Origin: Clostridia bacterium
GTDB taxonomy: Bacteria; Bacillota; Clostridia; Oscillospirales; CAG-272
Reading direction: 5' to 3'
DNA: 64,000 nt
Assembly (NCBI GenBank): GCA_017410065.1
Contig: JAFQRL010000047.1
Coordinates: 3,921-67,920 of the forward strand
The notes beneath the pieces are model-generated. The model was given only the letters and a program-made list of their open reading frames with translations, made no database searches and was not told the DNA's origin. The first letter of the stretch is position 1. Each line of letters begins with the position of its first letter. Below are positions 24,301-58,607 of the stretch, one piece after another. Made by a program: the position numbers and the translations under genes.

Positions 24301-27297
24301 GCCCTTGCCCGAAACGATCTCGGAATAGAAGCTATCGGGAATATGGCTGAATTTAACGCCGCCAATAAGGCCGAGGTCGTCAACGAGAGCGTTATGCACC
24401 TCTATCTCCTCAAGGAGTCTCTTTCGGGACTTTTTGAGGAAGCCGCCGTCCTTTGAGGAATCAGCCACGAACACGCCCTCTGCGAGAGTGTCTATAAGCT
24501 CCTTCTCAACGACGAGAGCGCGGACGTCAAGCTCAAATCTTTCGTCTCCGCGAGCTGCCGCACGGGCGCGCTCTATCTCGGAGAGCTGTTTCTTGGATTC
24601 TTTATAAAGCCTGTTGTTTTCCTTCTTGAATGCCGCAAGCTTTGCGCCGCTGAGCACTCCTCCGCGGAGAGGGTCAACCTTATCCGCACTCACGACGGTA
24701 TATCTTTTTCCGTCTGCGACCGCCTCCTTGCGCTCGGGGGCAACGTCAACGTACGCACCCATACACATAGGAGGATAAGGCATACCCTTCACAGGATAAT
24801 GCTGCCCCTCGTTCACCTTAGCCGATGCGCCACCGCTTGCGCTCGTTTTTTCTGCTGCGGGCGAATTTGCCGCATTAGCGGCAACGGTTACTTTCGAACC
24901 ACCGATGAGAAAGGTGAAGCTCCCGTCGGGGTCACTGGCTTTTTTTCCCGAAGGATCTCCTACTATGCGAGTGGTATCTCCCACAGTTTCAAAGAGCTCG
25001 TTTACGTGCACCATCAAAGGCATATCGGGAATAAGCATTGCCTCTGCCACCTTGGAGGCGGTGAGGGGATGTATCTTTGTTACGGTCGTGTTGCAAATGC
25101 GATCGCACGCGCTTGCCGCCTTATTATATCTGCCGAAGAGCTCCTCAAGCTTGATCCTCTCCTCGCCGATATATTTAGCCTTGCCAAGCTTGACCGCACC
25201 GATGAGAACGCGAGAGCCGACGAGAACTCTCTCTCTTTCAAGAAGAAGCGCCGCCACAGCCTTTTCGGGAGTGACAATGCCGCCGAGGCTCTTGACCTTC
25301 TTATCGATGGTCTTATTAGCCTTCTTCGCAAGCTTGCGAAGCTTCTTGAAGCTCTTCTTCGACGTTACCTCGGGCTTGTTTGCAAGAAGGTCGCGCTCAA
25401 GGAGAGCCGACTCAACTATCACCTTCGTGGTGATGGGGTTCTTCTTTTTCTCGCCGCCAACGGCAACGACGGAGGAGACTGCCTCAGCCGTCTCGCCCGA
25501 CTTAAGGGAGGTGACGCTGGGGAAGCTTACTATGTAAGACTTCGGGATCTCGGGATCGTCGGGTGTGAGCTGCTCGTATCTGTCTCTGTATGCGAGAACG
25601 GGAATAACAGCCTTGCCTGTCTGGTTTGTGATATGGTCGGGAAGGAATGCGGACACGCGGGTGAGCATCTCGCCTGTTTCAGCCGCGAATTCGGTTGCCT
25701 TGCGGTTAAATCTTTCGATCTGGGAGTAGAGCATAAGCCTGAGCTTCTTAACGAACTTATCGTTGCGAAGTCTTGCCGCCGCCGCGAGATTATCGCATCT
25801 GATCTCAAGGATCTTGCCGCACTCGTTCATAGAGTAGCAAAGCGCAGCTCTTGAACGCTCCTCGTCGGAAATCTGGCGAGCAGCCTCGTAGGTCTCGATT
25901 TTCTTTTCGATCTTCTTTATAGCCTTCTTGCTCTTCTTTACGTACTTTTTAAGCTGACGCTTGGTCATAACCGCCTCGCCCATCTTGCGAAGCTTCTCAA
26001 CGATGGGATCGTTGCTGATAACGGGCTTATGAAGGATCTTCTCCTCCTCGGGCTCCGAGGCGGGCTCCTCCTTCTTCTCCTCTGCGGGAGCCTTTGCCGC
26101 CGCAAGAGCGGTGAGAGCGGCGATCTCCTCAAGCATAGACTGACGGCGCTGCTCCTGAAGGAGAACGAGCTCGTCTCTGTGTGCTCTGATCGCTTCCATT
26201 TCCTTTGCGAATCTTTCCTGCTCGTCTGCAAGCATACGAGCCATCTCTTCTCTTGCAAGCTTTGTGCTTTCCTGGATCATACGGAGAGCCGCCTCGTGGT
26301 CTGCAAGTGCCTTTGCGAATTTACATTCGTCGGCATCCTCTGCCTCCTCGGGCTCCTCCTCCTCGGGCATATCCGCGGGGATCATACTTTCGGGAATGAT
26401 GGCAGGGTCGTCCTTATTGGTGAGGGACACAGTCATATCCTCGTCCTCGATATTGAGAACGAAGCTATCACCCTCAACAGTCATCATCTCGCCAACGAGG
26501 AAGTCCTCAACCTCACGGCGAGCCGCGTCTGCCTTATCCTCTGCCACGGGAGCGACCTTTGCCGCCTCCCGGCGAGCCGCAGCCTCTGCCTTTGCGATAG
26601 CCTCAGCCTTGAGAGCCTCCTCTGCCTGAGAGGCGGCTTTAGCCTCTGCCTCGGCTCTTTCGTTTTCAGCCTTCTCCTTGAGAAGGTCCATCTTATCTAC
26701 CATACGGAGATTGCCGTTTTCATCAACCACGGCGCACTTTGTTACGCGGTTGAGAAGCTCTGTTGCCTTCTCGCCGCGAGCTCTCGCCTCTTCCCTCTCC
26801 TTTTCAAGGAGAGCCGCTATCTCCTGCGCTCTTGCCTCACGAGCCTTTGCCTCCTCAGCCTCGCGCTCTGCCTTTTCACGAGCCTTAGCCGCGGACATTG
26901 CCTTTTCTCTGTCCTTCTGGAGCTTCTTTCTGTAATTCTGGGCATAGTTAAGAGCCGCCAGCTTCTGCTCTGCAACGAGCTTTGCCTTCTCTCTGTCCGC
27001 CTTCAATTTCTTCTCGGCGTCCTCAAGCCTTGCCTGAGCCTCCGCCTCGGTTTGCTTTCTGTCCTTTTCCTGTTCGGACTTGCGAGCGCGCGCGCCTGCA
27101 TCGGCACGGCGGATATTTCCTGCCGCAGCCTTGAGCTTTTCGGAGATATTCTGCTCCGCAGCCTCCGCCACGGGCGCATCCGCCGCAGTCTCAGCAGCTA
27201 CGACCTCGGTCGCATCCTGAACTGCAGTCTCGGTAACAGTCTCCGACGGAGCTTCCGCTTCGCCGACGATAGGCATTTTCTTTTCGTCTGCCATCAT
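21340..27297 (-). CDS. giant (1985 aa) tail-anchored coiled-coil repeat protein, unknown function
   Basis: It is a single uninterrupted ORF. No N-terminal signal peptide is present. The first ~450 aa are E/K/A-rich. Five tandem ~145-165-aa repeats each end in SGKGY(R/H/V)KxPxxE. One C-terminal TM segment reads GWLAGIGLMLLVLGAIVAGFIWLF. Confidence 0.8.
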   Translation of the reverse strand: MMADEKKMPIVGEAEAPSETVTETAVQDATEVVAAETAADAPVAEAAEQNISEKLKAAAGNIRRADAGARARKSEQEKDRKQTEAEAQARLEDAEKKLKADREKAKLVAEQKLAALNYAQNYRKKLQKDREKAMSAAKAREKAEREAEEAKAREARAQEIAALLEKEREEARARGEKATELLNRVTKCAVVDENGNLRMVDKMDLLKEKAENERAEAEAKAASQAEEALKAEAIAKAEAAARREAAKVAPVAEDKADAARREVEDFLVGEMMTVEGDSFVLNIEDEDMTVSLTNKDDPAIIPESMIPADMPEEEEPEEAEDADECKFAKALADHEAALRMIQESTKLAREEMARMLADEQERFAKEMEAIRAHRDELVLLQEQRRQSMLEEIAALTALAAAKAPAEEKKEEPASEPEEEKILHKPVISNDPIVEKLRKMGEAVMTKRQLKKYVKKSKKAIKKIEKKIETYEAARQISDEERSRAALCYSMNECGKILEIRCDNLAAAARLRNDKFVKKLRLMLYSQIERFNRKATEFAAETGEMLTRVSAFLPDHITNQTGKAVIPVLAYRDRYEQLTPDDPEIPKSYIVSFPSVTSLKSGETAEAVSSVVAVGGEKKKNPITTKVIVESALLERDLLANKPEVTSKKSFKKLRKLAKKANKTIDKKVKSLGGIVTPEKAVAALLLERERVLVGSRVLIGAVKLGKAKYIGEERIKLEELFGRYNKAASACDRICNTTVTKIHPLTASKVAEAMLIPDMPLMVHVNELFETVGDTTRIVGDPSGKKASDPDGSFTFLIGGSKVTVAANAANSPAAEKTSASGGASAKVNEGQHYPVKGMPYPPMCMGAYVDVAPERKEAVADGKRYTVVSADKVDPLRGGVLSGAKLAAFKKENNRLYKESKKQLSEIERARAAARGDERFELDVRALVVEKELIDTLAEGVFVADSSKDGGFLKKSRKRLLEEIEVHNALVDDLGLIGGVKFSHIPDSFYSEIVSGKGYHKTPKIEYQVVEQPSVQKVSAGSSAAVVETAGAAAGAAAVLSGKELSRYAKNSEKTYASAKARIEEQRRAIGKKSGEELVKAELDCIVEQRALIDMLCESLAVAGASGDARFVKSTEARLAEQIKKHNEAVDSLNAKNGTSVSRLPVSIIDDISKGKGYRKCARLEFVKAPAESIQQISSPAAAMSKKELKSYKAESAKAYAASEKTVAGIESSYKGKSGEELMQAEIAGINARRERIDALCNDLVVARGAEDKAFIASTKKKLADEIKSHNAAADAFSKKNGMEASKISSAVIDDILSGKGYVKAPRLEYRIDGEEEVLGAAAPEVKMYNLTSGAVSSPVLSGKEMKKHVKVSSRKYKELSDEAAALAKSSRNAKGAERIDVDLKALTVRKEIIDGLCETAAIAHSSGNAKLLKETKKKLEAEISAHNALVDEIAKLGVAPLSKAPADLYDQVTSGKGYRKVPKISLEIAEHPTSQLIYNQSASADGKSSAKGADEGSHRDLYVSGEVGKKELSARLKSNEKKLKTVSAQLEDLETKKRAAVGVEKHKLLVSQLNAQRAAAEAEASSLVYMVAAGSAKGQIAKQKKKVEAELKAYNSLADEYAEFTGDKLSGADVQMAEKIVNGQPFTRIKELEVAVFASGYDYQYANYDGYDANRDAQHEFAVAKAQAEAEKQNAISYELASLKNQVKRQADKDNRAVAAAFMYAKGLIQCEDDARNYSYGITKKVERRKSENIVARCKKIDRTGKAALNAENEANKRYYEVVTTHPDAVPPVGKKRRWKAIPFFRKKYTKQDITYLRDEIMKLLNERDRINGLLISIYEGQVMDLGGRPLTFDIRQVKAQAAKRMHNNKSIKAMAKKVDKRISDPYDRETLYGYINDQIEAESNIAVIEYRLKHAKDDNLTPYEIKQLKYDREAQIETQARAHAQFKRTYQRCLPDNDSGLGWLAGIGLMLLVLGAIVAGFIWLFGSGNLENLGSFLGFFQQ
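22390..24720. repeat. five tandem ~430-500-nt coding repeats within the giant gene
   Basis: The in-frame GKGY codons recur at 22918, 23389, 23821 and 24298 (gta/ata-gcccttgcc), plus a diverged unit near 22400 (NGQPFTRIKELEV). Confidence 0.75.
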
Positions 27298-41278: not shown

Positions 41279-41852
41279 AGTGCTTGTCAAGAAAATTGAC
41301 AGACGAAAAGTCCGTGACAAATTAGAGGTAAACCCTCGCATCCGACTCGCCGTTTTCACCTTCCGAGAAAGCACTCAAAATTGCTTTGACAAAACAAAAA
41401 AGACCCGTACTTACACACACGGATCACGGGAAACACCAAAAAGCGAACGGCGCACGTTCGCTAAAAAATGTCCCGCGCCTATGTATAAGTACGAGTCTAT
41501 AAGCTCGTTTCAATAAGAGAATGCAAGCGCATTCAATGCCGGTTTAGTGGCTGATGGCGACGGATTTCTTGTGAAATAGATTACTGATCAGCGGCTAATG
41601 ATGCCGCGCGTTCTATCTTGTTTTCCAAGCGGCACGAGGTTCATTCTCCACCGCAAGTATTCACGCGAAATATATCTTATTCAGTTGTATAGAACTCAAT
41701 TTGGATGGCAATACTAATAATGGGAAAGTATGCCTATGTAAAATCGAGTATTATATTATATCACAAGCAAGCGGATTTGTCAATAGCTTTTATAAAATTT
41801 CTTAAAAATATTTTTCAAAACTGCCTATCAAGTGGTAAAAGAGCAAAAAGAA

Positions 41853-41893
41853 AGCCGCTATCCAAGCGTGATTTACACGTTAGGATAGCGGCT
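41853..41893 (-). terminator. intrinsic terminator closing the cargo operon
   Basis: A perfect 11-bp stem AGCCGCTATCC/GGATAGCGGCT is followed on the minus strand by TTCTTTTTGCTCTTTT. Confidence 0.8.
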
Positions 41894-41908
41894 ATATTAG
41901 ATTATAAA

Positions 41909-43618
41909 TTATTGCAACAGAGCATTAAGGGATGCAGCTAACATCTTCTTCGGCGGCTTGCCTTGAAGCGTATTTCCAAGGATCTCGCTTACAAATCTGC
42001 ACTCATCATCACTCATATTGACGATAATGCTGAGGCGAAACCTTGCGCGCGATGCACCAACATAGAAGACTAAGTTGTTGCCTCCCACGTCAAACGTACT
42101 TCTTGTTACATCAACCAATACTATCGCATCAGCTTCAAGACCTTTGAACTTCCGGCAAGAGGTGAACTTGATTTGACGATTGTTAAATGGATAGCTACCA
42201 TTAACACAATGCGCAGAAAGCCAACTTTGATCTTCGGTTGTGCAAGTTAAGATTACAATGTCCTCGTATTTTTCATCGGTAAGCTTCTTCAAAACCTTGT
42301 TTAGATACTCCAAGGAATCGGCTTCAGATGATGCAATATGTATGTCGGGCGACACGCCCTTAACGCAGCCTTGGAACATCTTTGGCTTCTTGTCTTTTCC
42401 AAGCGGGCGCATAGATGTAATAGCTATGTTTTCGGTATTTCTGCAATTCTTATAAAGGGTTAATTTGCAATCTGAGTCAGCAATATACTGTGGGATTTGG
42501 CGACCTTGAACAAGCTGATTTTTATCGTAGAACAAGTAGAACGTGCCCTTGATTTCATCACTTAAAACTATGCTTTCCAAGGTTTGAATCACGCTTGATT
42601 CCTCTATACGATTTTGTCCAAAGTCTTGTCCTTCGTCAATGATTATGTGTTTATACGGGAACACTCCCGAGTAATACATCTCCATCAAAGTGTTCTCCAA
42701 TTGACCGTAATCAGCCGTTGAAGTATTACACAGATAGCAAGCAAGCGCGTCTATCGTATAGTAGTGAACATTCTCACCCATATATTTCTCGCGAAGGAAG
42801 TCACACAACTTTCTGTTATAACAGAGGAACAAAACCTTCTCTCCGATTTCAGAATGCCTTCTTGCTTTCTCAACGGCAATCATCGTCTTACCCGTACCTG
42901 CCACTCCGCTTATAACTGCATAGGGTTGTTCTTCAAGAAAGTTTAGCAATACCGATTGCTCTTTTAGCAAACGATTAAACGCATTTCTCTTGACAGCTAA
43001 CTCTGATGCAACCGCGGGAACCAAGTCAAACGTCGGACACAAAACCATCGACAAAACCTTTTGAGTTTCCGCTTGGTTTAAGCTTGTTTCTATGTTTGCA
43101 GGCAACTGTATATCGAATATTTTATCAATATCCTCTTTGATATTGGTAAGAGATTCTTTAGTCAAGGTTATGCTTTTATCTCCGTCAGAAGGCATCTGTA
43201 TCATATTCAAGTATGCCCTCGTAATTGAAGGAAACCAAACCGCGTGAAGCACCTTGCACTTATCCCAAAGATTTTGCAGTCCTTTGCGTTGGAAATACTT
43301 TTGGAGCTTCCATTTGTCCGAGTCAGCCTTTCTATATGGCCCTCCGTGGCTCATTTCTATACCGGAGCCATACATCCATTTGCCCGACTCACACTTTACT
43401 TGTCCCGCCTTCGCCTCAATGCAAATGATTCCTTTTTGCGGATTGAAAATGATGAAATCGGTTTCGCTTTCATACTGCACACCATTGACATTATTGATTA
43501 TAACAAAAGAATGAAAGACGTAATATTCATCCGGCAGCTTTGACAGTGCGATAAACATTTCATCTTCGTGACTGCCAATAGGTATATCTATGGGTTTCTC
43601 GGGTATCATTATTGCCAT
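41909..43618 (-). CDS. NERD-nuclease domain fused to SF1 (UvrD-like) helicase/ATPase; Nhi-like architecture
   Basis: The NERD/PD-(D/E)xK residues are ETD54FIIF...ICIE68AK70. Walker A is GVAGTGKT (aa 238-245) and Walker B is IIIDEGQDF. Further SF1 blocks are YKNCRNTENI, FKGLEADAIVLVD and FYVGASRARFRL. Confidence 0.8.
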   Translation of the reverse strand: MAIMIPEKPIDIPIGSHEDEMFIALSKLPDEYYVFHSFVIINNVNGVQYESETDFIIFNPQKGIICIEAKAGQVKCESGKWMYGSGIEMSHGGPYRKADSDKWKLQKYFQRKGLQNLWDKCKVLHAVWFPSITRAYLNMIQMPSDGDKSITLTKESLTNIKEDIDKIFDIQLPANIETSLNQAETQKVLSMVLCPTFDLVPAVASELAVKRNAFNRLLKEQSVLLNFLEEQPYAVISGVAGTGKTMIAVEKARRHSEIGEKVLFLCYNRKLCDFLREKYMGENVHYYTIDALACYLCNTSTADYGQLENTLMEMYYSGVFPYKHIIIDEGQDFGQNRIEESSVIQTLESIVLSDEIKGTFYLFYDKNQLVQGRQIPQYIADSDCKLTLYKNCRNTENIAITSMRPLGKDKKPKMFQGCVKGVSPDIHIASSEADSLEYLNKVLKKLTDEKYEDIVILTCTTEDQSWLSAHCVNGSYPFNNRQIKFTSCRKFKGLEADAIVLVDVTRSTFDVGGNNLVFYVGASRARFRLSIIVNMSDDECRFVSEILGNTLQGKPPKKMLAASLNALLQ

Positions 43619-43630
43619 AATGAACGCCTC

Positions 43631-46600
43631 CTATCTTTTGATTTTTTGAATAAATGCGGGAATATTAAAATTATCATCAAGACAAAAGCTTGTCCAATTA
43701 GTTGATTGAGCTGCTTCAAAGCTCTCGGCATTTTCTCTTAAGAAAAGCAATACTTTAGATGCAGGCCAAACCAAATCAGCAATGATCTTGGTTTCGTCTT
43801 GTACAGTTGTAATGCTTGCGGAATAATGTGGCTTGTCATAGCTACCTTCTTCCATCTGAGAAGCAATCGTTTGAATCAATTCCAATTGATCCTCATCCTC
43901 GGTATCCTGCGATAAGTAATTCCATATTTCATCATACGACATCATCGATTGGTCTTGTCCATCGTTGTTGAAATATGCATTTTGTGTTAAAATGTCCTCC
44001 GCAGGCGGTACAACATCTTCATCTTCAAGCTGAATACCAAAGAAGAAATCCTGCCCATTTTTAACCGAGTTCAAGAAATCAATTGCATAACGGCGCTGCA
44101 AAATGTCGTGTTGCTTTTGATTGTAGTAGTTGCACAAACAACCGTAGCAAGCAGTATCTCCTACCTCACCGCCACAAGTGCATTTACTCACAATAGCCAA
44201 GGCGGCTTCAAGCATTGACATAAACGTGGAAACATTTCTTAATTGACGAACGTAACCCGCGCCACCGGGAGTATTGTCAAAGAGAACAAAACCATAGTTG
44301 CCCATATTGCCCATTGCTTCATTCCTATACCAATGTAAGCATCCCGACAATTCGGTTCGGTCAATATGAAGGCACTTGCTCAATCCCTCAAGCAGTGCAT
44401 ACAAAATTGTCCACGCCTCATTAAGGTCAACTAAGTTTTCGGAAACGAATTTCAGCAAAACAACATCTGTTTGGAATTCGTGACCGATAGAATATCGAGT
44501 TAAGGTATCGCAAGAGCAATTGTATCCATCGGGCTTTTGATGTTTTTCCTTCTTCGACAAATCGTTGCTATCATCATACACCTTGCCATATCCACAAGTG
44601 TTGCAGATGAAGAAGTTCGAAGTATTAAGCACAGCAAGCTCATCCATCTTACTCGTTCCAACCACAACCTTTTTGTTACATACAGAATAGGTATGTGATT
44701 CAATACGTTTACCATCACCTATATAGGAAATAGAACCTTTGTAGGTTCTTTCAGGCTTATCCGTTCCCACATCAACGGGTTCAGCATTATCAACGACAAA
44801 GCCAAATTTAGGAATGATATATTGATGCGTTCCCTTGGGTAATTCGTGTCCGCATTGTCTGCACAACTGAGGAAGCTTTTCTGTCCAAATCGTGCGATTC
44901 AGCGTCTGACACGCGCTACACGTAGCGTAATTGTATTTAGGCCACGAGTAGCCGTTTAACACACGAACATAACGGCTTGTAATCAGTTTGCCATCAGCAA
45001 CCACCTCAGAGTCGGGGGCATATTCAGAAATAGCCGAGAACAAATCTCTATCCAAGCGCAAATCGTTCAAATCACCGCCTTTGCCAAGGCTCGTAAGCTC
45101 GACAGTATCGACCGGGAAACCGTACTTTGGTATTAGATTGTTTCTTGAAAGGAATTCAATCAACCGTTGCTCTTTAATCGTCTTGATAGATGTTCCAATG
45201 TTAATCAGTCTAAACTGAATGTCACGATATTCCTTTGAGCCAAGTTCTAATCCTCTCTGAAGTCTTTGGCATTCTCTGCTTGCACGCTCCAATTCACCAA
45301 TGTCGGTACAATACTTATTGTAAGCAAGTACAAAAACACCGGGAGCATCCGTATCCTCTGAGAACAATCGGTCAACCCAGGCAAATGTATCTACGCCGTA
45401 GAATACCTGCAACTCGCGGCTTACAATACTCTGCAAATATTCTTTTAATTCTTCAGGCTTGGATTGTAAATAGCTCTTTAATTCAGCCATTCCATTGAGA
45501 TCAAAGAACTCGCCAATATTTTTCTTGAACAACTCGGGAGCTTTCTTCCAAAAGAACGAAAATGCCGATGCAAAAATGTGTCTGAGTACAATTTTCTCAT
45601 TATCCACATTAAACGCAGGTGGGATAATCGTTCCTTTGATCATATCCACAGGATTTTTGAAATAGTTCAAATCGTGAGAACTGTTCGGGCAATATGTGAG
45701 AGCATATGCTGCGGACTTTATACTTCGTCCGGCACGTCCTGCTCTCTGTGCATAGTTTGCGGGAGAGGGTGGCATATTTCTCATAAAGACGGTTTCCAAA
45801 GAACCAACGTCAACACCCATTTCAAATGTTGTAGAACAACTCAACACATTGATATGCTCGTTCTTAAAATCGTTTTGATAAGCATATGCCTTTTGAGAGC
45901 CAAGCTGTGCCGTATGCTCCTTTGCAATCATATCTGTCATATTAAGATGACGATAAATGTTATGATAGTGGTCGTGCTCCAAAGCATCTTCAAAGTTATA
46001 TTCCGTCAAATGACCATTACACTTAGGATTACTACAAGTGCCATTAAGGTAGAACGGCGTTACCATCTTACACTCATTACACTTATAAAGTTTTTCAACA
46101 GTTCTAACCGTGATAGCATTTGTTGAAAGCAAATAGCGATTATTAGCACTATCGAAAGATAAAACACCGCTTGTATTAAGCTTTGACCAAATAGACTCCA
46201 ACAGTTTTATAACCATTTCATCAGATAAGTCAGGCTTAATTCTCTTAATCAGCAAAGTTCTAATATTATCCTTGCCGGTAGCGGGAAGCCAAGGTTCAAT
46301 GTATTTGCGTGTGGTATGGTCTTTTACAAAACCAAAGGAAACACCATTGTAAAATATCTCAGCACTCTCAGCCTTACTTACTGTAATCGGCAATTCTATG
46401 GCAGCCTTCTTAACAAAATACAATGCCATCAGTTTGAAAAGAGCCGTAACTTCGCTTGCGCTCATACCCAACTTCGCATTGTCGGGCATATTGATATTTA
46501 TATCAAAATACAGTATGCCCTTGTTCTGCAATGAATTTTTAGCCTTGTAGTTGGTAAGCTCTTTTATAGCATAAATCCACGCCACCTTGTGCCTTGTTTC

Positions 46601-48754
46601 GGGAGCACCGATTTTCAATTGCTCCATTTGTTCTTCCAACAAAGAAACAAAATGGTCTAAGGTAATGCCTCTATTAAACTGCTCGATATTATCCTCGCAG
46701 ATTTTGGTCATTACTCGCTTCATCAAATTACTACGGTAGGTGGTTTCCAAATAGGATGCAAAGAAAGCTGCCGCTTGACGACTATCCGAGAAAGTTAAGA
46801 ACTGCTTGACCAACTCTTTCCTTTCTTCAATCTCCATTTCTTCGGTTTCTCCAAAGAAATCATCCTCCATAACAACGCGCTTTTTAGTTATTTGAGAGTC
46901 CGGCAATACATTGTAAAGTCCCGTTGCAATAACCGCAGTAGCAGCTTCATTACCAAGAAAATACGGTCTTACTATACTTCTCCGAGTATTGATAATATGA
47001 CAGCAAGGGCAACTGTGCAGAGCGTCACCTTTTTCTTTAACCTTCCGCAATAAATTGTGGTACTGCTTATCGTGTCCGCACGATAAACCATCTAAGGAAG
47101 TAGCGTGTTTAATAGCACCGCACTTTGCGCAAACCACATATTTATTGTCCGCTTCCGCTTCATCAATCTCTGACTCATCGTAATCGCCTTCTAAAAGGTA
47201 GACTTCCGGCTCGTAATCGTCGTTGAACTTGGATTTTTGAACCAAATACCCATCTTCCGTTTGACCGACGATGAAAGTAGCATTACAGTTATGGCAGAAA
47301 GAAATAGCAAAGACCTTATAACCGCAATCGTCCGAGAATGGATCTTCCTTGTAGGTTTCCATTTTTCTAACGAACAGATGTCTGTCGGGATTTAGAGTTA
47401 CGTAAACGCCCTCAATTCCTCTCAAAAACATATGGTATCTTGCTTCAAACAGTTTATCCCCGGACACCTGTGCGTTGGATGCTACGGCAATAAAATCCGT
47501 AAGATCGTTAATATCCATACGGAGTTCACTTGCAATTTGGTTCAAGGGCTTTGTTTGATTGAGCATCAACGCTCTAAATTCATAGTAGAACGAGTCGCCC
47601 AATATCATATTGAACAAAGTTTTTTCAAGAGATTTATTGTCATCTGCATCGGCAGCAATAGCAACGCCTTTGGAGCGCAACCACTCCAACACATCGCAAG
47701 AAGCAATATTATCTCTGATTTTTTCAGAAAGTTCCTTGTAAATAGCAAAGTCCAATTTCTCAACCTTTGCAGGCTTCGTGGGTGCTATTGTATGAGATCG
47801 TATGATTGAGCTTTCTTCAAATCTCGTGCTACATAAAGATTGAGCAAAGTTGACGATTTGCTGATTGGATTTGTTATCTCCCAAGGTTGCAGATGTAAGT
47901 ATGAATTGAATATCATCCCTTTTGAGCATAGCCTTAACACGCTTCAAAAGAGTTCCTACCTCAATACCTTTCGCTCCACCGTATGTATGAGCCTCATCAA
48001 GAATAATTGTTTGCCATTTGTCAGCGGTTGCTTCGCTAAAGAATGCCACATCACCCGGTCTGAGCAAGAGGTATTCCAACATCGCATAGTTGGTTATCAG
48101 TATGTTGGGCGGAGTCTTACGCATCTGTTCACGACATATAAGCTCATTTTTAGGCGGCTCAATGCCTTCACGCTCAACGAACTCATTCCTTGCGCGAGTA
48201 AAATCTTCAGCAGTTTCGCCCGTGAACTTACCATAAGTGATAGCGCAGCCTTCATAACTTGCAAACAGTTCTCGGAGTCTTCGTATTTGGTCATTGACCA
48301 AAGCGTTCATTGGATAAATGATCAACGCTCTTACTCCCGCACCAAGAGTTCCTGTTTCTTGTTCCTTCAAGAGTTCATTGACCACGGGAATCAAAAAGCA
48401 CTCGGTTTTACCCGAACCCGTTCCGGTTGTGATTATGAGATTTTTCTTTTCTCCCGCTTTCAAAGCAGCTTCGACTTGGTGGCGGTACAATCTTCTTGCG
48501 TACGGATCAAGTTTGCCGAGATTAAGCATACTTTCACATAAAACGCGCTCGTCTACCAACTCAGATATAGTCTTTTCTTTTTCGTATGAATCACTTACAC
48601 TTACATAAGGACCGCTTGAAATTACGCCGTCCTTTCTAAGCTCCGCTTCGAGCTGACTATTATATTTATCATCGGTTGTCTGAAAAGTTGTAAGCAAGTA
48701 GTTTCTATAAAAGTCTACTATCTGCTTTGAACTTTCAGCAGGTCTAAATAGCAT
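43631..48754 (-). CDS. giant SF2 DEAH helicase with C-terminal DUF1998/MrfA-type Zn-binding domain (DruE-like)
   Basis: Helicase motifs are GTGSGKT (aa 111-117), DEAH (253-256), FSDSRQ (655-660) and QRAGRAGR (1003-1010). The DUF1998 core is LIPKYGFPVD...FDNTPGGAGYV...CTCGGEVGDTACYGCLCNYYNQKQH (Cys 1525-1541). The start ATG shares nt 48754 with the upstream stop. Confidence 0.85.
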   Translation of the reverse strand: MLFRPAESSKQIVDFYRNYLLTTFQTTDDKYNSQLEAELRKDGVISSGPYVSVSDSYEKEKTISELVDERVLCESMLNLGKLDPYARRLYRHQVEAALKAGEKKNLIITTGTGSGKTECFLIPVVNELLKEQETGTLGAGVRALIIYPMNALVNDQIRRLRELFASYEGCAITYGKFTGETAEDFTRARNEFVEREGIEPPKNELICREQMRKTPPNILITNYAMLEYLLLRPGDVAFFSEATADKWQTIILDEAHTYGGAKGIEVGTLLKRVKAMLKRDDIQFILTSATLGDNKSNQQIVNFAQSLCSTRFEESSIIRSHTIAPTKPAKVEKLDFAIYKELSEKIRDNIASCDVLEWLRSKGVAIAADADDNKSLEKTLFNMILGDSFYYEFRALMLNQTKPLNQIASELRMDINDLTDFIAVASNAQVSGDKLFEARYHMFLRGIEGVYVTLNPDRHLFVRKMETYKEDPFSDDCGYKVFAISFCHNCNATFIVGQTEDGYLVQKSKFNDDYEPEVYLLEGDYDESEIDEAEADNKYVVCAKCGAIKHATSLDGLSCGHDKQYHNLLRKVKEKGDALHSCPCCHIINTRRSIVRPYFLGNEAATAVIATGLYNVLPDSQITKKRVVMEDDFFGETEEMEIEERKELVKQFLTFSDSRQAAAFFASYLETTYRSNLMKRVMTKICEDNIEQFNRGITLDHFVSLLEEQMEQLKIGAPETRHKVAWIYAIKELTNYKAKNSLQNKGILYFDININMPDNAKLGMSASEVTALFKLMALYFVKKAAIELPITVSKAESAEIFYNGVSFGFVKDHTTRKYIEPWLPATGKDNIRTLLIKRIKPDLSDEMVIKLLESIWSKLNTSGVLSFDSANNRYLLSTNAITVRTVEKLYKCNECKMVTPFYLNGTCSNPKCNGHLTEYNFEDALEHDHYHNIYRHLNMTDMIAKEHTAQLGSQKAYAYQNDFKNEHINVLSCSTTFEMGVDVGSLETVFMRNMPPSPANYAQRAGRAGRSIKSAAYALTYCPNSSHDLNYFKNPVDMIKGTIIPPAFNVDNEKIVLRHIFASAFSFFWKKAPELFKKNIGEFFDLNGMAELKSYLQSKPEELKEYLQSIVSRELQVFYGVDTFAWVDRLFSEDTDAPGVFVLAYNKYCTDIGELERASRECQRLQRGLELGSKEYRDIQFRLINIGTSIKTIKEQRLIEFLSRNNLIPKYGFPVDTVELTSLGKGGDLNDLRLDRDLFSAISEYAPDSEVVADGKLITSRYVRVLNGYSWPKYNYATCSACQTLNRTIWTEKLPQLCRQCGHELPKGTHQYIIPKFGFVVDNAEPVDVGTDKPERTYKGSISYIGDGKRIESHTYSVCNKKVVVGTSKMDELAVLNTSNFFICNTCGYGKVYDDSNDLSKKEKHQKPDGYNCSCDTLTRYSIGHEFQTDVVLLKFVSENLVDLNEAWTILYALLEGLSKCLHIDRTELSGCLHWYRNEAMGNMGNYGFVLFDNTPGGAGYVRQLRNVSTFMSMLEAALAIVSKCTCGGEVGDTACYGCLCNYYNQKQHDILQRRYAIDFLNSVKNGQDFFFGIQLEDEDVVPPAEDILTQNAYFNNDGQDQSMMSYDEIWNYLSQDTEDEDQLELIQTIASQMEEGSYDKPHYSASITTVQDETKIIADLVWPASKVLLFLRENAESFEAAQSTNWTSFCLDDNFNIPAFIQKIKR

Positions 48755-51579
48755 TATCTCACCCTCCTAAAATCTACATAGTAGGTTGTTTCATCTTCAT
48801 ATAGTGGAATGTAGCGCTTGAACTCTTTTGATTTCAAAAGAATGTCGCTATTTTCACTAATCAATACTTGCGCTGTGCTATCATAATACGGAATAAATGC
48901 ATCCTCATCCTCGATAATGTTCAGCGACAAAACTTGAATTTTAGATTCGTCAAGAACAACCTCAAATCGCACTTTTTCAAATAAAGTGCGCGGTTTTTGT
49001 TTCGGTGCGCCCCCCTTTACCTTGGGAAAATACATCAGTTTACCCAAATACACGGTATCCGTTTCTTTTTGTATATCAAAGACAACGTAAGTGTATTGCT
49101 GCTTCAACCATCTCTCTTTCTTTGAAATTGAAGTAATGAACATTTTGCAATTCGACAAATCCGACACATCTACATATCCATATTTGTGTAATGGTTCGCC
49201 CAAAGGAATATAGTTGTCATCAAAGCCAAATTCGTCACTCTCCACCTCATATCTCTTTAGGGTGTAAAGCTTATCTCTGCTGATTTGAGGAAAGTATGTA
49301 ATCCCATTTTCAAGTTGAGTTCCAACCACTAATTCTTTTGTGTCAAAGTCGTAAAACTCCACATACAAAGGATTTCTACTTTGATACTTTGCATCAAGAG
49401 CCATTGTACCATTCTCGCAAATAAGCGCGAAACGGTCTATCCACGGTCTTACTTGTACCCTATATAGCGAAATACTCCGCCAACGATTGTCGCAAAACAT
49501 CAGATTAATATATACCATTGAGTTTGTGGTTTCCTTTATCTCCGCAACAAACTCCGATATATCCAATTTGAATTTGCCATCCTCGTACATATCACCCCAA
49601 ATACAATCCGACTCATTTTTATTTAAGTAGACCTTAATCTCGGTAGCTCCGGGTATTGACACGTACAACTCATTCTTTAAGTCGCTATACCATAAAAATT
49701 CGGGACGAATTAACTGCCACTGCTTTTCAAATCCAAACTTGAAAACTCTTAACGGAACTAAAAGTTTATATGTTTCCTTTTGAAATTCAAGTTCAAACTC
49801 TCCCGCTTCGTTGCCCTCTAACAAATTAACCACATATTCGCCATATTCATTCATATAGCAATTCAAGGGATTCGTAAGGTAATCACCCGAAAGCTTTATT
49901 TCCGCCGTACTACAAAAAGTATATCTTGGTTTGCTTGTCCGGCATCTTAATTCTGTAATTAGAATATAGCGAGTGAGCAGATGAGGATTCTTTCCCGGTT
50001 CATCCAAGCTGATTTGGTATACTCCGTCCATACACGGCAAGAGCGTATCCAAATCGATTGATACACCTACAACATCTTTTTCATTAGGAAAATCGAATAC
50101 GGTAATATTGCAATCGTTTTCAATGCTATAAGGATCTTCATTTACAAACAATCTCGTTCTTGGCAGCATCCCCTTATTAATCTTGAAAGAAACAATCGGA
50201 TGTTTATATGCAGTTTGAACTTGCCGTCCGTTTTTATAGAGCAAATATTCTTTAGAAACACACTCGAACAAGGGCTTGTCCGAAAATTCTCCTATCAAAG
50301 ACAGAGGTTTGCCATTTATATAAATCACAGAGTTTTCGGATACATCATCATAGCAATACTTATCCCACAAGACGCAAGCTGTATCGACAAAACGCTCTGT
50401 TATATTGCCGCTAACATACAAGCCTTTTCGAACCAATAAATAGTTAGTGCCTTTTTTAAGCTTGCTGCTTTCGTCAAAATCCTCGTCGAATACTCGATAC
50501 TCCTTGCTTGGAATAAGGTATTCTTGGGTTGCATTAGCAGAGATGACCACCTTATATTCGGCAAACAAATCCGTAATAGGCAGCTTGATTTCTTCTGAAA
50601 CCAATACACCGTATGCTTTATACACTTCAAGGTGTTTAGTAATCAACTCTCCGCCAACACGAATTTCAACCTTTGCATCATTTACAAAGCCTTCAGTCCT
50701 AAACTTTTGGCTTGGAATCATTAGATAAAGTTGGCTATTGTTGCGATCAATCAAGAAGTGCGGCTTGTGGAAGAACGATTCTTTTGCTTTGCGCTTTCTG
50801 CTAATGCTATCAGAAGCGTTAATTTCGCTGTTCTTCTTTTCAACCCACTCTTGGAATGCTTCGGAAAAGCGGTCTGCCTTTGGCGGCAATTTACCGTCAT
50901 AGTAATAGTTGTCCATCAAAACGAGATGGTCAAAAAACGTATCACTTACAACGGTTGACGTGGATTGGGCTATCAAAGCTCTTGTTGCCTTAAGTAGCTT
51001 ATATGATTTAGCAGGCTTGTTACCGCTTTTTTCAATAGAAACAACGTCACCGCTTCTGCTCAAAGACTCAGACACAAATCCGATCAAGTCATCAATATCT
51101 TCGTCAATTTCATCTGTTAATTGACGGAACAAGTTTCTATCATAGAACGAGAACAAAAAGTCAAAGTAATTATGCAGATATTGATTAGGAACAAAAGCGT
51201 GAGCCTTTATGTTTTCTACGTATGAATATTTGGATTGATTTTCTTGTTCCAACTCAAACAGTTTGTATTTCTGTATGGTTTTTGCGAAGATCTGCGCAAA
51301 ATAATATTTTTTGCTCTGTGAGATTTCAACGCCAACTTCCTCGTCGAAATAATCCCAATAGTTACCCTCGGAATATACACGAATGGCTATTTGTACCATC
51401 GCAACCGAAAGAACTTCATCTGACGGAACAAGCATTTGAACATATGAGTTTTTAACCTTATCACGAACGTATTGCAAGAGTTCTTCGTATTCATCGTCCG
51501 AGATGGCAATTTGACTTATCAACTCAAAACGTGAAGAAGTGAATTCTTCTCTAATACGTTTTACTAACTCAAAAAGCAT
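48754..51579 (-). CDS. large (941 aa) hypothetical protein; DruH-like by size and position only
   Basis: The ORF is uninterrupted and AT-rich. I recognise no catalytic or nucleotide-binding motif. The N-terminal ~170 aa look helical and the remainder looks beta-rich. It is translationally coupled to the helicase gene. Confidence 0.6.
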   Translation of the reverse strand: MLFELVKRIREEFTSSRFELISQIAISDDEYEELLQYVRDKVKNSYVQMLVPSDEVLSVAMVQIAIRVYSEGNYWDYFDEEVGVEISQSKKYYFAQIFAKTIQKYKLFELEQENQSKYSYVENIKAHAFVPNQYLHNYFDFLFSFYDRNLFRQLTDEIDEDIDDLIGFVSESLSRSGDVVSIEKSGNKPAKSYKLLKATRALIAQSTSTVVSDTFFDHLVLMDNYYYDGKLPPKADRFSEAFQEWVEKKNSEINASDSISRKRKAKESFFHKPHFLIDRNNSQLYLMIPSQKFRTEGFVNDAKVEIRVGGELITKHLEVYKAYGVLVSEEIKLPITDLFAEYKVVISANATQEYLIPSKEYRVFDEDFDESSKLKKGTNYLLVRKGLYVSGNITERFVDTACVLWDKYCYDDVSENSVIYINGKPLSLIGEFSDKPLFECVSKEYLLYKNGRQVQTAYKHPIVSFKINKGMLPRTRLFVNEDPYSIENDCNITVFDFPNEKDVVGVSIDLDTLLPCMDGVYQISLDEPGKNPHLLTRYILITELRCRTSKPRYTFCSTAEIKLSGDYLTNPLNCYMNEYGEYVVNLLEGNEAGEFELEFQKETYKLLVPLRVFKFGFEKQWQLIRPEFLWYSDLKNELYVSIPGATEIKVYLNKNESDCIWGDMYEDGKFKLDISEFVAEIKETTNSMVYINLMFCDNRWRSISLYRVQVRPWIDRFALICENGTMALDAKYQSRNPLYVEFYDFDTKELVVGTQLENGITYFPQISRDKLYTLKRYEVESDEFGFDDNYIPLGEPLHKYGYVDVSDLSNCKMFITSISKKERWLKQQYTYVVFDIQKETDTVYLGKLMYFPKVKGGAPKQKPRTLFEKVRFEVVLDESKIQVLSLNIIEDEDAFIPYYDSTAQVLISENSDILLKSKEFKRYIPLYEDETTYYVDFRRVR

Positions 51580-51598
51580 TAAGCAATCCTCCGTTCAA

Positions 51599-51787
51599 TT
51601 ATTTCTCAGCTGCGTTTCCTGCTTTTACCCAAGCATCAACCTCGGACACCTTGAATTTCCAAAGACGTCCAACTTTTGAAGCCGGCATATTGCGCTTTGC
51701 GATCCATACAAGCACGGTATCGCGGCTAACACCAAGGTGCTCCATAATCTCTTTGAGTGAATACCATCTTTCCGTTTCGTTAGTCAT
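51599..51787 (-). CDS. excisionase-family (MerR-like) HTH DNA-binding protein
   Basis: [46 protein letters not shown] is the Xis/HTH_17 pattern. The protein is 62 aa. It lies 20 nt upstream of the 941-aa gene. Confidence 0.8.
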
Positions 51788-51827: not shown

Positions 51828-51856
51828 ATTATACTATAATATCATCAATTTGTCAA
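51828..51856 (-). promoter_or_regulatory. consensus promoter (TTGACA-17-TATAAT) for the HTH + cargo operon
   Basis: On the minus strand TTGACA lies at 51856-51851 and TATAAT at 51833-51828. The promoter is ~40 nt upstream of the GGAG RBS and the ATG at 51787. Confidence 0.7.
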
Positions 51857-51909: not shown

Positions 51910-51933
51910 GGCGGCGAGATTTCTCCCGCCGCC
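51910..51933 (-). terminator. terminator after the tnpV/DUF6809-like gene pair
   Basis: The GC hairpin pairs GGCGGCGAGA with TCCCGCCGCC (1 mismatch). The A-rich tract at 51904-51909 gives a U-tract on the minus strand. Confidence 0.55.
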
Positions 51934-57398: not shown

Positions 57399-58607
57399 AT
57401 GGATTTCAAAAGCAATATAAAAATCATAGAAGGAAGGATCGGCTACGTCTTTCGCGATAAGTCTCTTTTAAAGCAGGCATTCACAAGGACGAGCTATTGC
57501 AACGAAAAAAACTACGGCGGCAAGGAGTGCTTCAGCTCAAACGAGGTGCTTGAATTCTTTGGCGACAGCGTGCTTTCCACAGCGATCGTCACCCTTCTTT
57601 TAAGGAAAAATACGAAAAGATACGAGCACGGAATTTCCACCGAGCTGACCGAGGGCGATTTCTCGAATATCCGCTCAAAGCTCAGCGATAAGCGCAACCT
57701 CTCAAAAAGTCTTGCTGCGCTTGGGCTTCAGAAATATATGCTTCTCGGCGAGGGCGACGAAAAAATGGGCATAAACGAGGAGCCCTCGGTTATGGAGGAT
57801 CTTTTTGAAAGCATCGTCGGCGCGATCTATATCGATTCGGATATGAATATTGAAACGGTTATCGGCGCGGTATCAAATATGCTCGACGTCACCGCTTATG
57901 CCGAGGGCGAGCCGGCTATGCAGAGCTATAAGAACGCCCTCCAGGAGTGGTGCGCAGATAAGAAAAACCGCCTCCCCTCCCCTGTTTACAAAACCGTCTC
58001 GGAAACAGGACCCGATCACAAAAAGACCTATGAGCGCGGAGTGTATATCGGAGATAAGCTCTGGGGTGTTGGCAAGGGTAAAAATCAGAAGCTCGCGGAT
58101 GCGGCGGCGGCAGAGGCTGCCCTCATAGCTCTTAAGGAAGCAAAGGAAAGGGAGAAGCGGGAGCAGACCGTCCGAGGCACAGTCGGCGCGGCGAAGGAGC
58201 TTCGGGATCTTGCAAGCCAAAGAAAGCTTTCCTCTCCCGAATATCACGACCTTGGCGAAGCTCCCGAATCCACCGAGACCCAAAGGGTCTATCTCGTTGA
58301 ATGTGTCTTTAACGGCGCATCAGCCATAGCAAAGGGCTATTCAAAGCAAGAGGCGCGAGACCTTGCAAGCGCAGAAATGATCGCTCATCTCGGCAAGGAG
58401 AAAAAGCAATCTGGCTCGGCAAAGGCACCCCGCAAAGTCGAAAATAAAAAGACTGCCGAAAAAGGCTGCTTCATCAAGAGTTCGGGCACAAAGCGTCAAG
58501 AGAGTAAGAAGCCCCACGTCGCAAAAATGCCGAAGGGCGCGGCGAATAGCGGAGCAAAAAATCCCTCGCCAAAGCGCAAGCCGCTCCACCACACAAAGCG
58601 GTCATAA
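57399..58607 (+). CDS. rnc: ribonuclease III with duplicated dsRBD and Lys-rich tail
   Basis: The catalytic signature is NEVLEFFGDSVL plus EDLFESIVGAIYID. dsRBD1 spans aa ~174-245 (ETGPDHKKTYERGVYIGDKLWGVGKGKNQKLADAAAAEAAL). A second dsRBD-like module spans aa ~263-332 (VYLVECVFNGASAIAKGYSKQEARDLASAEMI). A basic tail runs to aa 402. Confidence 0.85.
   Translation: MDFKSNIKIIEGRIGYVFRDKSLLKQAFTRTSYCNEKNYGGKECFSSNEVLEFFGDSVLSTAIVTLLLRKNTKRYEHGISTELTEGDFSNIRSKLSDKRNLSKSLAALGLQKYMLLGEGDEKMGINEEPSVMEDLFESIVGAIYIDSDMNIETVIGAVSNMLDVTAYAEGEPAMQSYKNALQEWCADKKNRLPSPVYKTVSETGPDHKKTYERGVYIGDKLWGVGKGKNQKLADAAAAEAALIALKEAKEREKREQTVRGTVGAAKELRDLASQRKLSSPEYHDLGEAPESTETQRVYLVECVFNGASAIAKGYSKQEARDLASAEMIAHLGKEKKQSGSAKAPRKVENKKTAEKGCFIKSSGTKRQESKKPHVAKMPKGAANSGAKNPSPKRKPLHHTKRS

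Follow-up and report, generated by a model that had tools for sequence, protein, structure and literature searches.

Three consecutive minus-strand genes in the genome of a Clostridia bacterium (Oscillospirales, CAG-272) probably constitute a single three-component system directed against phages or mobile genetic elements, in which a protein pair of the Druantia III-B type has recruited a nuclease-helicase effector. The window analyzed here is the whole 64,000-nucleotide (nt) stretch (GenBank assembly GCA_017410065.1, contig JAFQRL010000047.1, positions 3,921 to 67,920, forward strand), and all positions are counted from its first letter. In order of transcription, the genes encode a 941-amino-acid (aa) protein designated X941, a 1707-aa helicase of the DruE/YprA family, and a 569-aa protein that combines a putative NERD-type nuclease with a superfamily 1 (SF1) helicase. 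The initial annotation had left the choice between a Druantia type III-like pair co-transcribed with an Nhi-like gene and a genuine three-component system. Gene co-occurrence and the coupling of the third gene to a C-terminal tail of DruE favor the latter. The strongest evidence, which comes from sequence comparison, is that this tail shows co-variation with the third gene and is found again on the DrmB protein of DISARM. We also lean, if only slightly, towards a more general view, in which the tail and the NERD-SF1 helicase form a previously unrecognized, exchangeable adaptor-effector pair that is mounted on the Zn-binding ends of at least two YprA-family immune helicases, DruE and DrmB, where it replaces their phospholipase D-like (PLD) nucleases and would yield a RecBCD-like helicase-nuclease with two motors that destroys the DNA of the invader.

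The genes and protein domains are located as follows.

48754..51579, minus strand: X941 gene (941 aa)
50818..51579, minus strand: N-terminal helical domain of X941 (AlphaFold2 [AF2] secondary structure; invariant residues in alignment A1)
43631..48754, minus strand: DruE-like gene (1707 aa)
44135..44401, minus strand: MrfA-type Zn-binding (MZB/DUF1998) domain of DruE, aa 1452–1540 (PF09369; Cys motifs at 1525 and 1536)
43634..43987, minus strand: DruE tail domain, aa ~1590–1707 (presence coupled to the NERD-SF1 helicase; AF2 confidence [pLDDT] 83)
41909..43618, minus strand: NERD-SF1 helicase gene (569 aa), with a predicted NERD-type PD-(D/E)xK nuclease at aa ~1–130 and an SF1 UvrD-like helicase at aa ~215–545 (profiles, motifs)

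Co-occurrence of the DruE tail and the NERD-SF1 helicase

One genome per species was scanned with the X941 family, which yielded 20 loci (numbered with the prefix L). A DruE-like helicase gene is located downstream of the X941 gene in all of them, directly adjacent in 18 and ~3 kb away in two distant loci. DruE is followed by a NERD-SF1 helicase gene in 12 of the 20 loci, one copy being frameshifted. The same three-gene order was found in 26 metagenome loci, which answers the question raised by the initial annotation of whether the three genes also occur together elsewhere. The length of DruE is related to the presence of the third gene. In all 12 loci with a NERD-SF1 helicase, DruE comprises 1687–1711 aa and carries the tail, whereas in the six complete loci lacking this gene it comprises 1558–1612 aa and is invariably tail-less. 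The difference corresponds to a discrete C-terminal tail of ~118 residues positioned after the MZB domain. Tail-less DruE proteins appear in at least three separate places on a simple neighbor-joining (NJ) tree of DruE, and the protein of locus L007 has kept a truncated stub of the tail, indicating that the tail was lost by deletion.

For the reverse scan, metagenomes were searched with the NERD-SF1 helicase alignment, and 80 loci were obtained. Among the 54 relatives with at least 40% identity and readable upstream DNA, 52 have the tail directly upstream, and the junction with the tail-bearing YprA-family protein consists of gaps or overlaps of a few nt. The host of the tail is DruE in 26 of these loci, DISARM DrmB in 25, and a disrupted fragment in the remaining one. 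Divergent DruE proteins of 1726–1743 aa possess a correspondingly divergent tail (hhalign E = 8e-5). NERD-SF1 helicases below 40% identity were found behind other defense helicases (DpdF/"alt-Cas3"-like), a WYL regulator, or a HerA-like ATPase.

Mirror-tree analysis revealed a correlation between the NERD-SF1 helicase and the tail (r = 0.74, Mantel p ≈ 5e-4). The partial correlation between both, given the MZB domain, was 0.61, while that between the helicase and the MZB domain, given the tail, was 0.15. We propose that the tail acts as a docking adaptor for the NERD-SF1 helicase, and we infer from the sequence co-variation that the two are in contact.

These data bear directly on the possibility that two independent systems are located side by side, that is, a Druantia III-B pair and a self-sufficient Nhi-like NERD-SF1 gene, co-transcribed as a consequence of defense-gene clustering. 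Single-gene defenses composed of a nuclease and an SF1 helicase are known, Nhi of staphylococci being one of them. The 569-aa protein weakly matches the Nhi, AbiO, and GajB profiles, six of the 18 complete X941-DruE loci lack the third gene, and very distant relatives of the helicase (<40% identity) reside in other contexts. However, the match to Nhi (E = 1.8e-6) covers residues 231–399 and thus solely the helicase core. Furthermore, the placement behind a tail in 52 of 54 loci, the loss of the tail whenever the NERD-SF1 gene was lost (at least three times), and a co-variation that goes beyond that with the neighboring MZB domain all argue for a joint function. Even the distant NERD-SF1 helicases follow other defense helicases rather than occurring alone. 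We consider two separate systems distinctly unlikely. The absence of the module from a third of the X941-DruE loci indicates that the third gene is accessory and not essential, which makes the system an accessory-modular one.

In the AF2 model, the tail forms a small domain of the alpha/beta type. Among known folds, it was matched best by the Vsr-like nuclease domains of the enzymes PvuRts1I and AbaSI, although with weak scores (Foldseek E = 0.2–1.5), and a Pfam scan of the tail returned only noise (E ≥ 0.017). The tail may represent a degenerate Vsr-like fold. A second explanation builds on this resemblance. It accepts the third gene as part of the system but regards the tail as a degenerate Vsr-type remnant with a function of its own, such as DNA binding or autoinhibition, whereas the NERD-SF1 helicase would process DNA products and make no direct contact with DruE. 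Other YprA-family helicases have been reported to end in Vsr-type domains, some of them active and some inactivated, and both the fold matches and the finding that the would-be catalytic Asp is not invariant fit such a remnant. Nevertheless, the strict presence-absence coupling occurs in two different hosts, DruE and DrmB, and the partial correlation favors a link of the helicase to the tail over one to the MZB domain. Both observations are predicted by a direct interface and are harder to derive from a function in cis alone. The remnant explanation is, in our view, unlikely.

The tail and the NERD-SF1 helicase in a DISARM variant

The DISARM-type loci show the gene order DrmMII-DrmE-DrmA-DrmB(+tail)-NERD-SF1 helicase, with PADLOC calls in L032 and L063. 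The DrmB proteins of this variant comprise ~785 aa, compared to the usual ~600 aa, and have a C-terminal extension of ~150 aa that includes the tail. A hidden Markov model (HMM) of the tail, constructed from DruE sequences only, matched the DrmB C-termini with E-values from 1e-13 to 1e-21. In DISARM, the DUF1998 protein is normally followed by the gene for DrmC, a PLD nuclease, whereas the NERD-SF1 helicase occupies this position in the variant.

The PLD motif pattern HxK(x)4D…G[ST]xN was discarded as a test for the absence of DrmC or PLD domains because it did not match the positive control, E. coli DruE. Loci combining class-2-like DISARM with a NERD-SF1 helicase include L032:20-11707 as well as L029, L033, L035–L046, L049, L063–L066, L073, L075, and L079, and the variant is common in gut and rumen metagenomes. 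L035 and L036 lie on one contig (OLGD01000827.1, 23188–44876 and 3642–25330) with matching gene coordinates and scores ~19.5 kb apart, which could reflect a duplication or an assembly repeat. The window itself contains no Drm genes (DrmA, DrmB, and the methyltransferase were not found).

Properties of the three proteins

Judged by its profile matches, the 1707-aa protein is an SF2 (superfamily 2) helicase of the DruE/YprA family, as the initial annotation had suggested. PADLOC identified DruE1 (E = 4e-180) and DruE3 (E = 5e-168), with ~600 bits on the DruE profiles, and Pfam assigned DEAD (E = 6e-23), Helicase_C, and MZB (PF09369, E = 5e-11). The motifs GTGSGKT, DEAH, QRAGRAGR, CTCG, and CYGCLC were located at residues 111, 253, 1003, 1525, and 1536, respectively, in agreement with the earlier reading. 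A housekeeping MrfA or Lhr orthologue was ruled out on the basis of NCBIfam scores far below the cut-offs, with 91 bits for the nearest helicase family compared to the required 874. The nearest sequences in the PDB are two ~2000-aa helicases (9tu7 and 9wae), followed by MrfA/YprA (6znp). In BLASTP, the alignment with E. coli DruE (2114 aa) showed a core identity of 27–31% and ended at E. coli residue 1747, indicating that the C-terminal PLD nuclease region is missing from the 1707-aa protein. E. coli DruE served as a control and scored 2695 bits on the DruE3 profile; the tail HMM gave no match on it. A secondary, partial match of the tail HMM (model positions 62–114) was observed at aa 222–274 of DruE (window ~47933–48091) in L001–L005 and L023, which may be due to chance or to an internal repeat of the alpha/beta unit.

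X941 yielded no matches in Pfam and NCBIfam, and none in PADLOC even at E ≤ 10. Clustering of its family at 90% identity gave 139 clusters, and at 50% identity the family has 745 representatives; source names are few and uninformative, and a precomputed Pfam domain exists for a single listed member. The best 150 matches listed from an exhaustive profile search were all strong. The AF2 model (pLDDT 83) shows a helical N-terminal domain (aa 1–254), a long array of immunoglobulin (Ig)-like domains, and a beta-rich C-terminus. A Foldseek search with this model, as proposed in the initial annotation, retrieved Ig-domain arrays such as those of Robo2, contactin, and NCAM, and DruH was not among the matches listed. 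Sequence comparison with solved structures likewise gave marginal matches to Ig domains only. Invariant polar and aromatic positions are dense in the N-terminal domain (alignment A1) and include E122, N123, K125, H127, N149, R152, and D223; the domain is a candidate for a DNA-binding or catalytic cleft.

The DruH identity that the initial annotation had implied for X941 found no support. BLASTP against E. coli DruH gave E = 1.4, and hhalign of the X941 profile (A1) with a true DruH profile (A2) gave E = 0.01 and a probability of 4%, covering the N-terminal domains only. None of 40 distant members of the X941 family matched the DruH models, on which E. coli DruH scored 1830 bits as a control, and bridging by hhalign reached E = 0.2. 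X941 appears DruH-like in position, size, and predicted build, yet it fails all sequence tests for membership in the DruH family.

Further relatives of X941 differ in their composition. Many family members have N-terminal extensions, reaching up to 2149 aa in total (proteins P0294–P0373), and a few distant ones match the PADLOC candidate models PDC-S14, PDC-S57, and PDC-M03B. In L018:112-5724 and L019:6-4379, the X941-like region is part of larger proteins of 1870 and 1457 aa, respectively, with ~3 kb of extra sequence preceding the DruE-like gene. A two-gene relative is present on the annotated megaplasmid pNPD4_2 of Clostridium butyricum (L022:3780-11665). Here, a 1069-aa hypothetical protein shows N-terminal similarity to X941 (E = 1e-14), and its gene overlaps that of a DruE-like helicase of 1559 aa, which possesses neither a tail nor a NERD-SF1 partner. 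PADLOC recognizes the helicase only.

The 569-aa protein matched the PADLOC profile RTasNERD-Hel (E = 7e-61) over nearly its entire length, with residues 1–539 aligned to positions 1–516 of 519, and NERD+UvrD with E = 7e-15. Pfam returned AAA_19 (27.1 bits, above the cut-off) and UvrD_C_2 (26.1 bits, just below). The motifs ETDF at 52 (including D54), EAK at 68–70, GTGKT at 241 (K244), DEGQD at 328, and VGASRA at 520 were identified. D54, E68, and K70 as well as GTGKT, DEGQD, CRNT, KGLEAD, and YVGxSRA are invariant down to 47% identity (alignment A3). The NERD-type D..ExK site and the complete SF1 motif set described in the initial annotation were confirmed in this way, whereas its designation of the gene as Nhi-like gave way to the full-length RTasNERD-Hel match and to the observation that relatives almost never stand alone. 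The N-terminus matched NERD-named PADLOC models and the N-terminus of MADS6, with no Pfam NERD domain at E ≤ 0.01. Sequence comparison with solved structures gave no matches, and viral contigs contained no close relatives, merely one weak match at 25% identity. We propose that the 569-aa protein, given its conserved motifs, acts in trans as a nuclease-helicase effector. The most divergent NERD-SF1 helicases (34–36% identity) are located in L085:5038-11725, L098:2949-6309, L092:9006-11719, and L101:5745-11740. The genes preceding these four encode a DpdF/"alt-Cas3"-like helicase (itself behind an MzaA-like protein), a DpdF/PsyrT-like helicase, a WYL regulator, and a HerA/mad8-like ATPase.

Relationship to known defense systems

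Druantia III-B is described as a system of two genes only, encoding a compact, PLD-less DruE and DruH (Bell et al., 2025, PMC12458937; Himpich et al., 2026, 10.64898/2026.05.13.724758), and in the "Druantia III-like" branch, the helicases are mostly devoid of a nuclease domain (Bell et al., 2025). The window shares with this class a YprA-family DruE with DEAH motif and MZB domain, a partner of ~1000 aa without annotated domains encoded immediately upstream and translationally coupled, and transport as cargo of a mobile element. The missing PLD region indicates that the pair corresponds to the PLD-less III-B class. On sequence grounds, the X941-DruE pair is closest to Druantia III-B, an assignment that refers to these features rather than to a placement in the published YprA tree, with PADLOC scoring DruE about equally on DruE1 and DruE3. 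It differs from III-B in its third gene and in the matching tail of DruE. Plasmid matches from actinobacteria and cyanobacteria (Nostoc) were rejected as III-B references, as they turned out to be ARMADA I or Druantia I/II-like.

The resemblance to Druantia III-A, represented by DruH-DruE of E. coli and P. aeruginosa, includes the order of partner and DruE, the homologous helicase core, and the predicted general build of the partner. In the cryo-electron microscopy structures of DruH, Ig-like domains come after a helical domain at the N-terminus, and AF2 predicts a comparable succession for X941. DruE of III-A is reported to be a helicase with a PLD nuclease, and DruH is reported to be an ssDNA (single-stranded DNA)-binding exonuclease. 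In contrast to III-A DruE with its two C-terminal PLD-like nuclease domains, the DruE protein of the window has none. The partner lies outside the DruH family (STY4851/ECs_5259; PF27205 + PF27201; PADLOC DruH3) by every sequence test, its C-terminus is predicted to be beta-rich while that of DruH is alpha-helical, binds ssDNA and ATP, and contacts the DruE stalk, and the operon has a third gene. The type III-like pair recorded in the initial annotation stands as far as DruE is concerned, but neither the partner nor the C-terminus of the helicase conforms to III-A.

The helicase of class 2 DISARM (DrmMII-DrmE-DrmA-DrmB-DrmC) also belongs to the YprA family; it is divided between DrmA and DrmB, and a nuclease gene comes next. 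The 25 related loci described above carry the identical module after DrmB. In ARMADA type II, ArmD is a fusion of a toxin or nuclease, here a RelE-like RNase, with a GajB-like UvrD-type SF1 helicase, and it comes last after a YprA helicase (PMC12458937). The 569-aa protein gives weak matches to the GajB profile. Unlike ArmD, however, its N-terminus is of the NERD PD-(D/E)xK DNase type, BrxHII and PglX are missing, and an adaptor tail is not described for ARMADA. RTasNERD-Hel of the DRT (defense-associated reverse transcriptase) class has the same NERD and SF1 architecture and acts as an accessory partner of another defense enzyme. In the present case, the partner is a YprA-family helicase, and neither the window nor the related loci inspected contain a reverse transcriptase gene. 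Nhi is a single-gene nuclease-SF1 helicase defense, whereas the relatives of the 569-aa protein follow a tail-bearing YprA-family protein. AddAB and RecBCD combine two motors with a PD-(D/E)xK nuclease that degrades DNA during unwinding. They provide a mechanistic analogy, with homology claimed only at the level of the SF1 and PD-(D/E)xK superfamilies and the corresponding assembly being hypothetical. The searchable literature yielded no description of a NERD-SF1 helicase as a component of Druantia or DISARM, or of the tail, and Bell et al. (PMC12458937) mention NERD for TALON only.

Proposed mechanism and implications

By analogy with DruH, X941 would recognize, pre-process, or trim exposed ssDNA or DNA ends of the invader and license DruE. 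Its family membership and intact helicase motifs suggest that DruE then loads onto ssDNA and unwinds in the 3'-to-5' direction. Instead of using a PLD nuclease of its own, DruE would recruit the NERD-SF1 protein through the tail beyond the MZB domain. The recruited protein would contribute a second motor as well as the PD-(D/E)xK nuclease and would degrade the unwound DNA. In combination, the proteins could form a helicase-nuclease with two motors, similar to AddAB or RecBCD. Tail and NERD-SF1 helicase would form a portable module, which also terminates the DISARM variant at the DrmC position. The DNA substrates and the defense phenotype named here are inferred as well.

Several points weigh against this picture. 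According to one study, III-A DruE does not require its PLD domains for defense, so a nuclease may be altogether unnecessary. Whether the PLD nuclease of DruE matters is disputed among four preprints from 2026; one considers it dispensable, and others report helicase-coupled DNA degradation. A third of the complete X941-DruE loci, six of 18, have no third gene, and the fold of the tail is only weakly assigned. The tail could also be a leftover domain whose sole connection to the downstream gene is linkage. Since the metagenome loci were collected by way of the NERD-SF1 helicase, their deep branches are biased towards its presence, and both the mirror-tree and the tree analyses are based on simple NJ distances with non-independent pairs. 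Furthermore, the absence of DrmC was checked solely at L032, where three downstream ORFs (open reading frames) gave no PADLOC matches.

If the proposal is correct, a dedicated docking domain allows the effector modules of helicase-based immunity to be swapped. So far, no obvious effector has been assigned to the PLD-less III-B class. The locus suggests that the nuclease of many Druantia systems without PLD domains, and of a DISARM variant, is encoded in trans as a NERD-SF1 helicase, and that a small C-terminal domain on an MZB-bearing protein marks such a nuclease partnership. The disputed requirement for a nuclease in Druantia and DISARM would become approachable through a naturally separable subunit, and with a candidate protein-protein interface at hand, what DNA degradation contributes to YprA-family immunity could be tested genetically. 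A common accessory module also links Druantia and DISARM. Current defense-finding profiles overlook what two of these three proteins do, and annotation tools could be extended by the tail HMM and the gene triplet.

Operon structure and mobile-element context

The ORF listing confirmed the coordinates of the four minus-strand ORFs of 62, 941, 1707, and 569 aa, which lie in one block, as well as the shared nucleotide and the 12-nt gap noted in the initial annotation. Nucleotide 48754 is common to the TAA codon of the X941 gene and the ATG codon of the DruE gene, which is preceded by an AGGAGG ribosome-binding site. DruE ends with TAG, overlapping a GGAGG ribosome-binding site, and 12 nt separate it from the 569-aa gene. 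The X941, DruE, and NERD-SF1 helicase genes form a single transcription unit together with the HTH gene ahead of them. The HTH gene and the regulatory elements are located as follows.

51599..51787, minus strand: helix-turn-helix (HTH) gene (62 aa)
51828..51856, minus strand: sigma-70-type operon promoter TTGACA-17-TATAAT (12/12 consensus match)
51910..51933, minus strand: intrinsic terminator ending the upstream DUF6809 gene (10-bp stem, 8 GC pairs, T tail)
41853..41893, minus strand: operon-closing terminator hairpin (11-bp stem, ~19-nt loop, T-rich tail; read from the sequence)

The promoter, already identified in the initial annotation, is one of two perfect matches within the 10.7 kb scanned (41.6–52.3 kb). 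As a class, promoter-like sites are not above chance in this region, with 26 found compared to 28.1 expected. The terminator at 51933–51910, located just upstream of the promoter, insulates the operon as a transcription unit of its own. The closing hairpin, which the initial annotation had also pointed out, has the stem AGCCGCTATCC/GGATAGCGGCT; it is absent from the list of the terminator scanner because its ~19-nt loop exceeds the loop-length limit of that program.

The HTH protein matches Pfam HTH_17 (E = 1e-13), a DNA-binding family of the excisionase type. In the initial annotation, its gene headed the block. However, it is present only in L001–L004 and L023, the closest relatives, and the similarity of L005 stops at 51580. 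It was rejected as a system component and is probably a local regulator. The protein also resembles MAD1 of MADS (methylation-associated defense system), matching the NCBIfam MADS1 (MAD1-like) family with E = 5e-17, below the family cut-off, and the N-terminus of the NERD-SF1 helicase resembles that of the MAD6 kinase (E = 2e-6). These likenesses suggest domains shared with MADS.

As the initial annotation had recognized, the operon is AT-rich cargo of a mobilizable element. The GC content is 0.385–0.418 over 42–52 kb, compared to about 0.45–0.55 in the surroundings. Flanking genes encode a large serine recombinase with DUF4368, ParB, a MobA/VirD2 relaxase, NikA, DUF6809, and TnpV, which identifies the element as a Tn4451-like mobilizable transposon, with the operon as its low-GC cargo sitting between the mobilization genes and TnpV. 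L005 shares with the window only the three genes (41845–51580), a near-identical cassette on a different element, and the block common to the window and its relatives ends at 41845–41909 on the downstream side. The three genes thus travel between different elements as a cassette, and this limited sharing supports them, without the HTH gene, as the functional unit.

Such a position would also suit an operon that serves the element itself, for example in DNA repair or processing during transfer or in the exclusion of competing plasmids, with a MrfA-like repair helicase at its center. The YprA/MrfA family does include genuine repair enzymes. Yet the DruE profiles gave ~600 bits, far from the 91 bits on the nearest NCBIfam helicase family, and the three-gene cassette was found on different elements and in chromosomal contexts. 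Moreover, the same effector module terminates DISARM operons that contain a methyltransferase, and low-GC cargo is typical of defense islands. Service to the element is a highly improbable explanation, and a three-component defense system remains the preferred one.

Three further features of the window were noted. At 57399–58607 (plus strand), an RNase III homologue comprises 402 aa instead of the usual ~230 aa; its Pfam domains stop near residue 243, leaving a C-terminal extension of ~160 aa unmatched. A 1985-aa ORF with no Pfam matches is located at 21340–27297 (minus strand) in the chromosomal part, near nusA and infB. The second perfect TTGACA-17-TATAAT promoter (41755–41783, minus strand), with an extended −10 TG, lies just past the operon terminator and is placed to drive the NikA and relaxase mobilization genes.

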